Shown: positions 48,651 through 54,034 of the stretch, piece by piece
Position numbering within the stretch: the stretch's first letter is position 1
How the letters are laid out: each line of letters opens with the position of its first letter
Origin: a virus
Virus genome (UHGV): UHGV-1483955
Reading direction: 5' to 3' (one strand)
Length of the DNA stretch: 64,000 bases
Translations under genes and position numbers: made by a program
Notes under the pieces: model-generated
The model's input: only the letters and a program-made list of their open reading frames with translations
Databases searched by the model: none
What the model was told of the DNA's origin: nothing

Positions 48651-49529
48651 GTGAGTATGCATCAAGTCGTCAGCTTTTCAGGTGGACGAACATCGGCTTA
48701 TCTCGTTCATCTGATGGAAGCACAGCGAAAAGCTGGCGCTAGCGTCCATTTCATTTTTATGGATACCGGCTGTGAACATCCTCTGACGTATCGCTTTATT
48801 CGTGAGGTTGTGAAGTTCTGGAACGTACCGCTAACGGTGTTGCAGGTCGATATAAATCCAGAACTTGGGCAGCCAAATGGTTATACGGAATGGGAACCAA
48901 AGGATATTCAGACGCGAATGCCGGTGCTTAAACCGTTTATGGACATGGTTAAAAAGTACGGTACGCCATACATCGGCGGCGCGTTCTGTACCGACAGGCT
49001 AAAACTCACCCCTTTCACGAAATATTGCGATGACCATTTTGGGCGAGGGAATTACATCACATGGCTCGGTATTCGTGCGGACGAACCCCGTAGGCTGAAA
49101 CCGAAACCGGGCGTCCGGTATCTTGCCGAACTGTCAGATTTTGATAAGTCGGATGTTATCCGGTGGTGGCGAAAACAACCTTTTGATTTGCAAATCCCGG
49201 AGCACCTCGGGAACTGTGTTTTTTGCATCAAAAAGTCAACGCAAAAGCTGGGGCTTGCATGTAAAGACGAACCAGGTCTGATGCGGGTTTTTAATGAACT
49301 GGTTACAGGCAAACACGTCAGGGATGGTCATCGCAGAACAGGTAAAGACGTTATGTACCGTGGCCACCTGACGCTTGACGGGATTGCCAGAATGTATGCC
49401 GACAGTGACTACAGAAATTTGTATCAGGCGATGGTGCTGGCCAAGCGGTTTGATACTGGTTCGTGTTCCGAATCATGTGAAATCTGGGGTGACCAATTGG
49501 AGTTGAAATTCGAAGAGGTAGTGGAATGA
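48651..49529 (+). CDS. PAPS-reductase-family (PP-loop) protein
   Basis: PP-loop VVSFSGGRTSAYL. Confidence 0.7.
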   Translation: MSMHQVVSFSGGRTSAYLVHLMEAQRKAGASVHFIFMDTGCEHPLTYRFIREVVKFWNVPLTVLQVDINPELGQPNGYTEWEPKDIQTRMPVLKPFMDMVKKYGTPYIGGAFCTDRLKLTPFTKYCDDHFGRGNYITWLGIRADEPRRLKPKPGVRYLAELSDFDKSDVIRWWRKQPFDLQIPEHLGNCVFCIKKSTQKLGLACKDEPGLMRVFNELVTGKHVRDGHRRTGKDVMYRGHLTLDGIARMYADSDYRNLYQAMVLAKRFDTGSCSESCEIWGDQLELKFEEVVE

Positions 49530-49729
49530 CAATCGTAAAAACCCATACCGGTACCGTGATCACCAAAGATGGCCCGAAGGTAAAAAAACTGCACCAAACA
49601 GAGCGGATGTGGGTCGTTGGCAAAAACGAGTTTTACCACAAAGAAACTGGACGCCGCCATTTTGCAGAAAATACACGCCGCCGACTGCTGTTAGACACCA
49701 TCAAGCCTATCGAGGTGAAGCATGTTTAA
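49526..49729 (+). CDS. small basic hypothetical protein (67 aa)
   Basis: Overlapping start/stop with neighbours. Confidence 0.3.
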   Translation: MTIVKTHTGTVITKDGPKVKKLHQTERMWVVGKNEFYHKETGRRHFAENTRRRLLLDTIKPIEVKHV

Positions 49730-49961
49730 ACAGAACGAAAAAGCTATCGCTCAAATTGCTGATTATATCCCGCGTGCGTGCCGGGGTATGCAGTTGCAGG
49801 AAGCCAAAGCGCGCCTGGAGAAAAAAATTGCGCTCTATATTGATGACGGCTGTGATTCCGCCGTTCTTAACGCGGCGTTCGCACCAGCTCTTAACTGTCA
49901 CACTCGGGAGTCTTTTTTTTCGTGCATCGCAGCGCAACTCCGCCAAGGAGGCAACCAGTGA
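49722..49961 (+). CDS. small protein ending in AAQLRQGGNQ (79 aa)
   Basis: C-terminal motif and junction shared with ORF 51749..52483. Confidence 0.3.
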   Translation: MFKQNEKAIAQIADYIPRACRGMQLQEAKARLEKKIALYIDDGCDSAVLNAAFAPALNCHTRESFFSCIAAQLRQGGNQ

Positions 49962-50602
49962 GTAACCGTTTTTACATGATGTGCTTGCGTGAAACTGTGG
50001 GTAATAACGCCTCATTCCATTGCCATAACGGCAATGGTTACAGTTCTGATATCGATCGCGCTCATATTTACACGCTGGAAGAAGCCCAAAAAGCCTGGAA
50101 TTGTGGGCGAGATATCGATCAGCCTGTTTGTGCCGATAGTGTGGATGCAATGGCTGTGTGGCACGTTGATTGCCAGTACATCCCTACAGAAAGCCTGATT
50201 GAGTCAGATTGCACTGAGTATGTGGCCTACAAAAAAGGTAGCTGGAACGGCAACGATGTTTACTGGCTTCAACACGGTGGATTGCCAACAGATGACTTCA
50301 GTAAAGCGACCATCTTTAGCGTCGTCAACAAAAACGAACCAGGAATAGTTTGGTTGCCATTTTCCATTGCTGATGCAGCAAAGCGCCGGACGTTCAATAT
50401 CAATAACTTTAACCGCAGAACAATGGTTCAGGGCGCAGGGTTGGTCATGCCTGACTGGTTGAAAGAGCAGAACAGAAGAAAGAAGTCGCGAAGCGGGAAG
50501 GTGCGTTGGAATTGTCCGCATTGCGGAAAAATAACCTGGCAGTACAGCCCATATGATTTTGAAGGCTGTAGTGATTACAACTGTGAAGGATGGCGAGAAT
50601 GA
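49922..50602 (+). CDS. Cys-rich hypothetical protein (likely GTG start at 49958)
   Basis: Several Cys/His pairs incl. C-terminal CPHCGKITW...CSDYNCEGW. Confidence 0.35.
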   Translation: MHRSATPPRRQPVSNRFYMMCLRETVGNNASFHCHNGNGYSSDIDRAHIYTLEEAQKAWNCGRDIDQPVCADSVDAMAVWHVDCQYIPTESLIESDCTEYVAYKKGSWNGNDVYWLQHGGLPTDDFSKATIFSVVNKNEPGIVWLPFSIADAAKRRTFNINNFNRRTMVQGAGLVMPDWLKEQNRRKKSRSGKVRWNCPHCGKITWQYSPYDFEGCSDYNCEGWRE

Positions 50603-51752: not shown

Positions 51753-52483
51753 AATTTTCCAAATTTTCTGAGTTGGTGAATCGTATTTTGTCCAACAACC
51801 ACAGCCATCGTCGCGATATGGATGTAACAATCGTTGTTCATTCGCCTGGCAGCATTGGTTCAACACCTTCAGTTGAGGTTCAGTCAATTCACGCTGGTTT
51901 TGATTGGGATTCCGGGAAAGTGCTTATTTTCCCATCACAGCCACTGACCACGCTAACACCAGAACAGATTACTGATATCACTGATAGTGTGCGCAAAGGT
52001 CAGTCTTGGCACGCATATCAGGAATACAAGAAGCATCAAGAGCAGTTGGAAAAATTGTCGATTGAACTGGATGCCGCAAAACAGCGCATTGCAGAGCTGG
52101 AGGGTAATCGCACGGCGCTGGCAGTGGAGAATGAGCTGGCTCGTAAGGCAGTTCAGGCATTCTGCGATGTTGTTGGCGACAACACCGAGGTTATCGCTGA
52201 GGTGGTTGGGCGAGATGGCGTTCTGGTTATTTTGGAGGCCATGAAGGCAACAGGAAATATGCCAGCCACCGATGCTTTCCTGGCTGAAGTGCGGGCGCAG
52301 GGCGTGGATGCTGCTATAGAAGCTGCAAAAAATCTGGTGGCCCAAGAATATGAGTATAAGGATTTCAAAGCGGCGCAGAGTGATTGCTGTATGCACCCTG
52401 GTTCAGACCTGGTAGGGAAGGTTGAAATGACTGAGTGGTTAGTTGACTTTGCTGCCCAGCTTCGCAAAGGAGGCAACCAGTGA
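51749..52483 (+). CDS. Ea22-region paralogue
   Basis: Shares PATDAFLAEVRA block with 50590..51465 and C-terminal AAQLRKGGNQ with 49722..49961. Confidence 0.4.
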   Translation: MKFSKFSELVNRILSNNHSHRRDMDVTIVVHSPGSIGSTPSVEVQSIHAGFDWDSGKVLIFPSQPLTTLTPEQITDITDSVRKGQSWHAYQEYKKHQEQLEKLSIELDAAKQRIAELEGNRTALAVENELARKAVQAFCDVVGDNTEVIAEVVGRDGVLVILEAMKATGNMPATDAFLAEVRAQGVDAAIEAAKNLVAQEYEYKDFKAAQSDCCMHPGSDLVGKVEMTEWLVDFAAQLRKGGNQ

Positions 52484-53070
52484 GCAAGATTGATTATCAA
52501 AAGCTTCGTGAAATCGCTGAAAAAACAAAAATTGCTGGTGAAGCACCTGTAATGCCCTTCGATCAGCGAATTAATGCGCTTAACGATTTTATGAAGCACT
52601 TTTCGCCAGATATCGCGCTGGCACTGCTGGATGAACTGGAAAGAAACCAGCAATACATCAAACGCCGCGACCAGGAGAACGAGGAAATTGCTCTTACGGT
52701 TGGGAAGCTGCTAATCGAAAACGGCCGGCTTGTTGCCGATACGCTACGCCACTTAGCTGATAACGAAATCGACTCTGATTATTTTGCTATCACCTCAACG
52801 AATGAGAACGGTACTGAAATTGATCATGAGATGGCTATTACCGATTACGCACTGCAAGCTGCCGGAACTGTAGACGAATTGGTTGCGGCGCTGGAATCCG
52901 CAGAGAAGCGCATAGCAGAACTGGAAGCACGGGAAATATCGCTCCCAGAACGTAGCAGCATGCTTCATCGAACAGATTTTCACGAGGATTACCAAACGGT
53001 AATGGCATACAAAGTTTCTGAGGTCATCGCTGCAATCCGCGCCGCTGGCATTCGCATCAAAGGAGAGTGA
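52480..53070 (+). CDS. Ea22/Ead-like family protein
   Basis: N-terminus SKIDYQKLREIAEK ... IALALLDELE; GTG start overlapping upstream stop. Confidence 0.45.
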   Translation: MSKIDYQKLREIAEKTKIAGEAPVMPFDQRINALNDFMKHFSPDIALALLDELERNQQYIKRRDQENEEIALTVGKLLIENGRLVADTLRHLADNEIDSDYFAITSTNENGTEIDHEMAITDYALQAAGTVDELVAALESAEKRIAELEAREISLPERSSMLHRTDFHEDYQTVMAYKVSEVIAAIRAAGIRIKGE

Positions 53071-53071
53071 T

Positions 53072-54034
53072 ATGAGCGCTATAACCAAAGAACGTATCAA
53101 ATTATTCATTAAAAATCCGCTTGATAACGGACTTACTCGTGGCGAACAAATGGAACTGGCACGAATTGCGCTGGCATCGCTGGAAGCAGAACCGGTGGCA
53201 TGGACTGATGAAGAGGAACTGCGCGATGTCAGGAAGTATGGTTTCGGTGAGATATTTCAGTGTCCGCCAGATAAATATGCGGACCCGCGTCGTGTAATCT
53301 CGCTGTATCGCGAGCTGCCAGCACCGGTAGTGCCAGATGATTGGCAACTCGTACCTAAGAAAATAACACTGGAAATGGAATGTGCTCTATCAAAAGCTGA
53401 TAGCTATGAAATTGGTTGGCTATGGGCATTGGCAGCCGCACCTAAATACGAAGTACAGAACGCTAAACGCGTGCAAAACGCGCTTAACGCCTGCCGCGCC
53501 GCCATGCTTCAGTCCGGAAACTTTCGGGAAAACAAGAATTCGTCAACCAATAATTTTCGGGAAATCGCGGAAACGTCAACCAACTATCCGGCAATTCCTA
53601 GTGAGGTGTTGTCCGCAATCCTGAAGGTTGCCAGGATTCGTGCCGATTTCGATGATTTTGACGGTGACAGGCGAGGTATCGGTGATTGTCTGGATGAGGC
53701 TGAGCAAGAGCTTATCGTTACCATTAACAAATATGCCAGTCAGTTGGCAGCAGAACCGATAGCGACTAATGACGTTCGAGAGCAGCAGACAGCCATTCCG
53801 CAAGTTCCGGTAACTCCGGATGGTTGGATAAGCTGTAGTGAGCGAATGCCGAATACCAAAACGGCCGTTCTTGTTGCCGTGGAGTTTGACAGGAAAGGTG
53901 ACTGGCGAATGAAATGGGCTACTTACATCCCGGGGCATCCTGACGCTAATGATGGGTGGATAATTCCTGGTGCGTCGTGGAAACCGTCACACTGGATGCC
54001 GCTACCAGAACCGCCGCAGGAGGTGAATCAATGA
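53072..54034 (+). CDS. DUF551-containing protein
   Basis: C-terminal WISCSERMPN...PSHWMPLPEPP, the DUF551 hallmark ending. Confidence 0.55.
   Translation: MSAITKERIKLFIKNPLDNGLTRGEQMELARIALASLEAEPVAWTDEEELRDVRKYGFGEIFQCPPDKYADPRRVISLYRELPAPVVPDDWQLVPKKITLEMECALSKADSYEIGWLWALAAAPKYEVQNAKRVQNALNACRAAMLQSGNFRENKNSSTNNFREIAETSTNYPAIPSEVLSAILKVARIRADFDDFDGDRRGIGDCLDEAEQELIVTINKYASQLAAEPIATNDVREQQTAIPQVPVTPDGWISCSERMPNTKTAVLVAVEFDRKGDWRMKWATYIPGHPDANDGWIIPGASWKPSHWMPLPEPPQEVNQ

Follow-up and report, generated by a model that had tools for sequence, protein, structure and literature searches.

An operon with a recurring junction

The DNA considered here, which we call the window, is a stretch of 64,000 nucleotides (nt) of the virus genome UHGV-1483955, and our subject is a short sequence repeated three times between the co-directional genes of its interval 49526-54034, where it probably serves as a linker through which gene cassettes are exchanged. 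The window has the backbone of a P1-like IncY phage-plasmid, its best match being NZ_CP067401.1 (99.7% identity over 83% of the interval), and the genes, junctions, blocks and operator described below are all on the + strand. They occupy a variable slot located between pap and hot/humD on the P1-type backbone; the pmgT-humD segment has been listed as 'variable region 8', one of eight regions of high variability in P1-like phage-plasmids (PMC9603915).

The gene string of which the interval is a part begins 3′ of pap and of an operator of the P1 C1 repressor (47724-47740, ATTGCTCTAATAAATCT; in P7 the operator with which it aligns bears the annotation Op(hea)). Its first gene (47919-48647) codes for a protein of 242 amino acids (aa) of unknown function (phrog_874), and it is followed by genes for a phosphoadenosine phosphosulphate (PAPS)-reductase-like protein of 292 aa (48651-49529; Pfam PF01507, phrog_424), a 67-aa protein (49526-49729; phrog_1226), overlapping its predecessor by ATGA, and a 79-aa protein (49722-49961; phrog_1344). 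Then come a 214-aa protein with a GTG start and a C-terminal cysteine-rich motif (49958-50602; phrog_2457, Upf87.6 of P7), a 288-aa fusion of an Ead/Ea22 N-terminal domain with an EaE-like C-terminal domain (50599-51465), a 96-aa DUF4752 protein with a GTG start (51462-51752), a 244-aa protein of the EaE/Oad2 family (51749-52483; phrog_368, 1.9e-75), a 196-aa protein of the Ead/Ea22 family, resembling EaD of P22 and starting at GTG (52480-53070), and a 320-aa mosaic protein resembling EaA of P22, with a DUF551 domain at its C-terminal end (53072-54034; residues 251-316). The Ea22-like and DUF551 content announced by the original prediction, which had been made from the sequence alone, was recovered with Pfam: Ead_Ea22 (PF13935) is recognized twice, at 4e-19 in the 288/291-aa protein and 7.9e-17 in the 196-aa protein (70.0 and 62.6 bits for a gathering threshold of 27), DUF4752 (PF15944) once, at 1.7e-42 (143.8 bits for 27), and DUF551 (PF04448) once, at 3.1e-21 (76.4 bits for 22). 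Because the C1 operator stands upstream, because the genes are linked through ATGA or GTGA overlaps and because a search for promoters within the string revealed no convincing one on the + strand, the whole is best understood as a predicted C1-repressed, translationally coupled operon, the coupling being read from the anatomy.

The junction is summarized by the 18-nt motif AAAGGAGGCAACCAGTGA. It had been placed at about 49945, 51448 and 52466, and was found at 49944-49961 (CAAGGAGGCAACCAGTGA, one mismatch), 51448-51465 (AAAGGAAGCAGCCAGTGA, two mismatches) and 52466-52483 (exact); with up to three mismatches allowed, the 64-kb window holds these three matches for 0.08 expected, and none of 100 shuffled sequences reached three. 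The motif is embedded in a direct repeat of about 37 nt, the class I island, present at 49929-49965 (copy 1), 51433-51469 (copy 2, diverged) and 52451-52487 (copy 3, with the exact motif), with 73-84% identity to the reference copy, and the similarity among the copies stops at GTGA. The ribosome-binding site and the GTG start overlapping a TGA stop that had been noticed there exist in all three copies, with AAGGAGG located 6 nt before the GTG codon. This is the anatomy of translational coupling, a Shine-Dalgarno sequence inside the upstream open reading frame (ORF), 5-9 nt from a start codon which overlaps the upstream stop, and the Prokaryotic Genome Annotation Pipeline used in RefSeq (PGAP) chose the same starts, with identical 4-nt overlaps, in a 99.7% identical plasmid (coding sequences 6197-6436/6433-7077, 7074-7940/7937-8227 and 8224-8958/8955-9548). 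The 3′ end of the repeat is a core of 15 nt (GGAGGCAACCAGTGA, at 49947-49961 in copy 1), and with its variable position the linker reads CGCAAAGGAGGCA(A/G)CCAGTGA.

The proteins encoded upstream of the three copies end in AAQLRQGGNQ (79 aa), AEQIRKGSSQ (288/291 aa) and AAQLRKGGNQ (244 aa), in keeping with the shared C-termini that had been reported, as is the PATDAF block common to the last two, a 39-nt repeat with 87% identity between 51196-51234 and 52259-52297. An RNA element at the junction was considered and ruled out: no Rfam family reached its gathering score in 47600-57600, and the three copies fold no better than shuffled sequences (z = +1.2, -0.8 and -0.8), without dyad symmetry.

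Reassortment at the junction

Viral contigs were scanned with a 17-mer of the junction, yielding at least 120 loci (L004-L123), and further loci were gathered through two downstream cassettes, the 214-aa gene and the DUF4752 gene (L124-L283), thus avoiding the bias inherent in a motif used as bait. Among the matches listed, 142 instances of the junction have flanks that fall into 35 upstream and 34 downstream clusters, associated in 93 combinations. Once the loci are pooled, the 15-nt core has at least 317 unique contexts, which associate 46 upstream with 46 downstream clusters, in 141 combinations, where control 21-mers taken inside genes have from 1 x 1 to 5 x 3 flank clusters. Anchored comparisons of pairs of loci, again among the matches listed, show where homology is lost: for pairs with a common upstream side and different downstream sides this happens either at -1 to +3 (164 of 475) or at +24 to +34, and for those differing upstream and sharing their downstream side, at -12 to -40. 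The mode at +24 to +34 is seen where downstream genes share Ea22 N-terminal codons, and copy 3 of the window displays this second mode, homology running on into the conserved Ea22 N-terminus (MSKIDYQKLRE). Position by position, nucleotides at -16 and before track the upstream cluster (association of 0.55-0.81), nucleotides from +1 onwards track the downstream cluster (0.55-0.83), and an A/G/T polymorphism at -8 is linked to neither flank (0.25 and 0.34). The point at which linkage to the upstream module gives way to linkage to the downstream one is therefore situated inside the 15-nt core, and the polymorphism at -8, which follows neither side, implies exchanges on both sides of it.

The same independence is visible for individual cassettes. 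The core, with at most two mismatches, precedes the 214-aa gene in all 79 loci found via that gene, and what lies upstream comprises at least eight unrelated sequences and 17 different partners; conversely, at least nine unrelated gene families follow the core. In its 75 loci the DUF4752 gene is preceded by three classes of junction, 42 being class-I-like, 17 having CAGGAGCCACCACAGTGA and 16 having CAGGAGGTGGCGTAGTGA. In the P1-type set selected by backbone, homology breaks off within 49947-49963 in 10 of the 13 elements which bear the array, the homologous side being 95-100% identical, so that the copies of the junction do coincide with breakpoints, as had been anticipated. Junctions 2 and 3 are breakpoints as well, in L290 (right end at 51465; the ends of high-scoring segment pairs (HSPs) accumulate at 51440-51470), L296 (52483) and L284 (52499). 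We further observed that a family of small proteins of the DUF2737 type, containing NKYLNAMW (hkaI of HK620, L301; gp28 of HK446, L303; orf56 of P22, L302), ends either in RKGGNQ, with the class I core, or in RSGKK or LRKDKCNR, with an ATGA junction; one gene body therefore exists both with and without the linker.

It is worth emphasizing that the core is read in two frames. About 205 of the at least 317 contexts end in KGGNQ or KGSSQ in frame 0. Three upstream families use the +1 frame, ending in EATSE, with frame 0 closed: upf87.4 of P7 (end CPFCGESLKTWEAEATSE), a 194-aa protein homologous to the 242-aa protein of the window (the latter has, in other phages, a homologue ending in WVIEFERIQGATSE, with the core in the +1 frame) and a 72-aa protein. 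The families retained for this claim are only those in which frame 0 is closed; the heuristic that takes the longest open frame mis-assigns the 79-aa family, where both frames are open. Used in two frames, the core is therefore conserved as nucleic acid. In copy 1 of the window both readings are open, a 118-aa ORF (49609-49965, ending in SAKEATSE) overlapping the annotated 67-aa and 79-aa genes.

Variability of the slot in P1-like and lambdoid elements

Invariance of the interval across relatives, which would have spoken against a cassette boundary, is not what we found: at least 80% of it is covered in none of 544 matching phage records and in one of 645 matching plasmid records. Seventeen P1-like plasmids were also chosen by the conserved pmgS-pap backbone alone; 11 of them carry Ea22-type arrays, and every composition differs. 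P7 carries the array too, and the latter is a standing feature of the P1 family, subject to ongoing exchange, not a one-off import. The proposal of an import into a P1-like backbone can thus be kept as far as the backbone is concerned, and it has to be abandoned as a single event.

The six remaining plasmids of this set (L287, L289, L292, L294, L297 and L300) have in the same slot, on the opposite strand, a type I restriction-modification (R-M) system (hsdR, hsdS, hsdM). This variant displaces the whole region from pap to phd/doc, including hot and humD (about 47914-57231 in the window). The same P1-like slot is therefore filled either by a defence system or by an array of Ea22/EaE type. Other cassettes seen in P1-like arrays code for a site-specific DNA methyltransferase, or for a toprim-domain protein together with a PHD-type antitoxin (L299, 9098-9826; L291, 2709-3819).

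The lambdoid relationship that had been suspected is well supported. The same cassettes occur in Stx, P22-like and HK620-like phages, individual segments being 93-98% identical, and they occur there between the recombination genes and xis/int. In Ss-VASD, HK620 and P22 the matching types of genes are placed in the same order in this early-left region: PAPS-reductase-like, two small genes, Ea22-like and, further on, DUF551.

Other islands and neighbouring features

When all 15-mers of the loci not selected by motif are ranked by how diverse their contexts are to the left and to the right, several islands score as high as the class I core or higher: the start of the DUF551 domain, the PATDAFLAE block, a second coupling junction and an ALASLEAEP block. 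The DUF551 start island (53816-53841, CCGGATGGTTGGATAAGCTGTAGTGA, coding for TPDGWISCSE), which holds the 15-mers of highest context diversity, has 36 x 19 left and right flank clusters in 84 combinations; the PATDAF island has 18 x 25 in 72 combinations, and the class II junction (GGCATTCGCATCAAAGGAGAGTGATATG, 53047-53074, located at the AAGIRIKGE end of the 196-aa protein and known also between hkaG and hkaF of HK620) has 14 x 26 in 59 combinations. Hot spots of HSP ends along the window coincide with these islands: they lie near 53800 for the DUF551 start, and at 51180-51230 and 52260-52300 for the two copies of the PATDAF block. A coiled-coil block (RIAELE..N..ALAAEN), a 49-nt repeat with 86% identity between 50869-50917 and 52085-52133, is likewise an intragenic island, with HSP ends at 50880-50920 and 52100-52120. 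There are thus at least four islands, the class I linker, the PATDAF block, the DUF551 domain start and the second coupling junction, two of them inside genes, and the region must therefore be seen as genes and sub-gene segments patched together at these places. The view of the repeated junction as a cassette-exchange boundary is upheld by its breakpoints, and it loses its uniqueness.

The proteins reflect this patchwork. The 288-aa protein matches 17 PHROGs piecewise; the 320-aa protein matches EaA of P22 in its N- and C-terminal parts, and its PHROG matches are piecewise also; residues 46-80 of the 196-aa protein, a block of 35 aa, are 74% identical to EaD of P22 (E=7e-13). Several features can be recorded besides. 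About 100 nt (52606-52710) are the sole part of the 196-aa gene kept, at 86-96%, in 12 of the 13 array-bearing P1-type elements, and homology stops sharply at 52709-52711, a further intragenic breakpoint within this Ea22 gene. A tandem duplication of 33 nt, 78% identical, lies in the DUF551 gene at 53519-53583 and codes for NFRENKNSSTN and NFREIAETSTN. A small ORF (47813-47908, MNTAFKIIMAAIYFWLFSITFGGIVAHG), situated after the C1 operator and before the first large gene, would code for a hydrophobic peptide; it is kept in P7, and a counterpart is annotated in some plasmids (e.g. L286, 54-188). At the head of the array, the PAPS-reductase-like gene is found at the equivalent position in the lambdoid phage Ss-VASD and accompanies the array in P1-like and lambdoid elements alike; its product matches the SspD model of PADLOC (1.8e-13) and, weakly, the DndC and BrxP models, and it may be a candidate for a role on DNA modification.

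The link with EaE and Oad2

The PATDAF block and the RKGGNQ tail are hallmarks of the EaE/Oad2 family. EaE of P22 ends in IEDIAAQLRKGVQS, with a diverged version of the junction. Residues 155-285 of the 288-aa protein are 34% identical to it (E=1.5e-19), and the 244-aa protein matches it at E=1.2e-5, both values having been obtained with a small database. When compared with gp27 of HK446, known as Oad2, the 244-aa protein shows 28% identity over 170 aa (E=4e-6 in a database of 10 proteins); the common blocks are the coiled coil with LAAEN, PATDAFLAEVRAQ and the QLRKGGNQ end (DQLRKGGNQ in Oad2), the variable segments being unrelated. The oad2 gene itself ends in the exact 18-mer, followed by the remnant of an Ea22-type start. 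Indeed, 3′ of oad2 in HK446 (L303, 8342-8508), the junction gives way to GTGAGCAAGATTGACTATCAGGCACTGCGTGAG, with which an Ea22-type gene would begin; as no such gene is annotated there, this looks like what was left by a deletion or an exchange just beyond the island.

Oad2, a relative of EaE of P22, is reported to inhibit the defence protein OLD of P2, and its locus was termed a hotspot of fast-evolving anti-immunity genes; its relatives are sometimes fused to EaD/Ea22 or to an HNH homing nuclease, and specificity is narrow, a 54% identical homologue failing to inhibit OLD (bioRxiv 10.64898/2026.07.10.737580, July 2026). The architecture of the 288-aa protein is that of an EaD/Ea22 fusion of this kind. 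Because identity is only 28%, and because the 54% identical homologue is inactive, the OLD function cannot be transferred to the 244-aa protein. Membership of the interval proteins in a defence system was looked for and set aside, all eight of them having no meaningful match among the defence models of PADLOC, and PHROGs gave them 'unknown function' only. For the suggested hotspot of anti-defence or exclusion genes the support is thus indirect: two proteins of the EaE/Oad2 family, the junction in common with oad2, and the type I R-M system that 6 of the 17 P1-like plasmids have in this slot. The cargo of the array may diversify anti-defence functions.

A probable linker for cassette exchange

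How can we understand the repeat? We consider it probable that it is a shared gene-to-gene linker, acting as an island of homology for the exchange of cassettes in a C1-repressed, coupled operon. Its 3′ 15 nt would provide the next gene with its translation initiation region (a Shine-Dalgarno sequence, a spacer of 6 nt, and GTG overlapping TGA), its 5′ part, of some 20 nt, codes for the conserved C-terminus (AAQLRK) of EaE/Oad2-type domains, and the overlap of stop and start would couple translation of the downstream gene to that of the upstream one. Because many otherwise unrelated cassettes carry the identical linker, it would constitute an island of homology, reaching up to about 70 nt with an Ea22-type gene downstream, since the Ea22 N-terminal codons are conserved as well. 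In cells where P1-like plasmids and lambdoid phages or prophages are co-resident, crossover would occur within the island, driven by homology or microhomology, either by the host RecA or by phage annealing proteins of the Red/RecT/Erf type. Recombinants would retain an intact stop, ribosome-binding site and start, hence immediate expression, and it seems natural that joints which stay expressible in this way have become so common. Together, the islands would split the region into genes, and segments of genes, that can be exchanged. Recombination at boundary sequences has been documented (PMC2327257, PMC3029335), as has the ability of Red/RecET-type systems to recombine short homologies and diverged sequences (PMC2327257).

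A number of points weigh against this linker account. The loci selected by backbone are only the 19 P1-type ones, ascertainment by motif or cassette inflates some of the counts, and the samples are mostly elements of E. coli and Salmonella; cluster thresholds of 80-85% nt identity split distant homologues, so that separate clusters need not be unrelated genes. Nor is the linker universal: the DUF4752 gene has three classes of junction, and breakpoints just as strong occur at other gene boundaries and at blocks within genes. Crossover within the island is, besides, deduced from sequences as they stand today. Fifteen nucleotides fall short of the length of homology generally cited for RecA to recombine DNA efficiently, and selection for a strong ribosome-binding site with intact stop and start could preserve the core after illegitimate joins.

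These last points lead to the most serious rival, which we regard as unlikely: DNA would be joined illegitimately anywhere, joints at gene boundaries would survive, and the core, a strong ribosome-binding site and start, would be carried along or re-selected without being the substrate of the crossover. The core does hold a near-ideal Shine-Dalgarno sequence at ideal spacing, hence a plausible target of selection, the DUF4752 gene works behind its several types of junction, and reviews note that conserved boundary sequences are missing at most mosaic joints of phages (PMC3029335, PMC2327257). Yet it is not just GGAGG, but the spacer too, which is identical in more than 300 contexts; the island remains constant whichever side is swapped; the polymorphism at -8, unlinked to both flanks, implies exchanges on either side of it; and events recent enough to have left 95-100% identity on one side stop within 49947-49963. 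Unrelated islands located inside genes behave alike, which selection for a ribosome-binding site cannot explain.

The two-frame reading bears on another view, where the repeat would be nothing but a functional C-terminal peptide of paralogues (AAQLRKGGNQ, for instance a tag for interaction or degradation) and would overlap the start that follows only incidentally. This we hold to be improbable, despite the majority of contexts that end in frame 0, despite the presence of the tail in both EaE of P22 and Oad2, and despite synonymous differences between copies 1 and 3 in the part coding for [FI]A[AED][QE]LRK, which fit selection on a peptide. The core is equally conserved in genes that read it as EATSE with frame 0 closed, and its GGNQ codons show no synonymous change across the three copies of the window; conservation of the core as peptide only is ruled out in this way, and the peptide accounts at most for the 5′ half of the island, a part we retain. 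That the junction could be the target of a dedicated site-specific recombinase or homing system, in the manner of integron attC sites or homing endonucleases, is very improbable. The array does resemble a cassette array with a repeated boundary, and HNH homing nucleases are fused to some relatives of Oad2 (bioRxiv 10.64898/2026.07.10.737580); against this stand the want of dyad symmetry, folding at the level of shuffled sequences, the negative Rfam search, and the lack of any recombinase or nuclease domain in the operon in Pfam, PHROG and PADLOC searches, and site-specific recombination was discarded on the grounds of symmetry and recombinase. Moreover, several unrelated sequences serve equally well as breakpoints, and general homology therefore fits better than a specific site. 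It is hardly credible, finally, that the three copies reflect a local tandem duplication in this plasmid, uninformative on exchange: the 288-aa and 244-aa proteins have three blocks and phrog_368 in common, but the DNA between these blocks is unrelated, and each cassette has 93-100% identical copies elsewhere, in different combinations. Local duplication as the sole explanation is contradicted both by the combinatorics of the flanks and by the breakpoints of the P1-type set.

Should the linker account be correct, it may be taken one step further, to an idea that we offer only tentatively and that is rather less likely to be right than to be wrong: the class I core, with three or more further islands, would make up a linker 'grammar' by which genes and sub-gene segments of a fast-evolving anti-defence repertoire (EaE/Oad2, Ea22, DUF551) are pooled and recombined across two unrelated temperate lineages, P1-like and lambdoid, every recombinant being expressed at once because the linker would also be a translational coupler. 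If so, this would be a natural system of combinatorial diversification for counter-defence, as well as a tractable case for opposing homologous linkers to illegitimate recombination in phage mosaicism, a debate between linkers and random illegitimate joining which has lasted since 1978. At this locus natural recombinants of one linker number in the hundreds, the zone in which crossover would lie is narrowed down to about 15 nt, and the signal for expression is part of the linker itself, which makes the question directly testable. The locus also ties the variable region of P1-like phage-plasmids, which matter as carriers of resistance genes, to the early-left hotspot of lambdoid phages, from which Oad2 was recently reported, and it makes of the 244-aa and 288-aa proteins candidates for counter-defence screens.

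Comparison with known systems

Arrays of cassettes are familiar from integrons, where co-directional promoterless cassettes with a recurring boundary element follow a single upstream promoter, and the present array resembles them. It differs in that there is no integrase and no structured attC-like site, and in that the boundary lies within coding sequence; general homology is the best explanation here. Nearer to phages, the PeSL elements of T4-type phages, which associate a promoter and a stem-loop terminator between non-essential genes, are shuffling points in hyperplastic regions (Arbiol et al., 2010, PMC2839356). In both cases a short, repeated expression signal is a point of modular shuffling, but PeSL acts at the level of transcription, whereas the linker would act at that of translation, within one operon, having neither promoter nor stable stem-loop: no sigma-70 promoter and no stem-loop terminator was found at the junctions, which fold at the level of shuffled sequences.

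Three further comparisons concern the cargo and the site. The ea22 genes of lambda and Stx phages are mosaics of an Ead/Ea22 N-terminus, a coiled coil and unrelated C-terminal domains, including DUF551 (Sci Rep 2024, PMC10834534); the genes described here share this mosaic of portable domains, while the DNA islands of assembly and the P1-like elements are outside that paper. Variable region 8 (PMC9603915) has the same location as our slot, but is described there by its gene content only; the junction, the lambdoid relationship and the type I R-M alternative are absent from that account. As for Oad2, the likeness lies in the coiled coil with LAAEN, in PATDAFLAEVRAQ, in the RKGGNQ tail and in the exact junction, and the difference in the low identity of the 244-aa protein over 170 aa.

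The closest precedent is the linker model, founded on the short conserved boundary sequences of lambdoid phages (Susskind and Botstein, 1978; Clark et al., 2001; PMC3029335, PMC2327257). What we see corresponds to it in its essential traits: a short conserved sequence at a gene boundary, non-homologous flanks in many combinations, and homology breakpoints that map to the conserved sequence, itself proposed as a substrate of homologous recombination. HK620 possesses one copy of the junction (hkaH to hkaG) and one class II junction (hkaG to hkaF). We can therefore understand the junction as what seems a well-resolved instance of this model, in which recombination at the linker is deduced from the arrangement of sequences. 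It departs from the earlier linkers in being resolved as a unit of translational coupling, read in two upstream frames and quantified over some 300 loci, and in being shared between two unrelated phage families, the plasmid prophages of Punavirus type and the lambdoid phages. The concept of linkers, the mosaicism of Ea22, the variable region of P1 and the idea of an anti-defence hotspot are already in the literature; a candidate linker coupling translation in two frames, its quantification, the set of islands, the bridge between two phage families and the link to Oad2 are what the present analysis would add to them.

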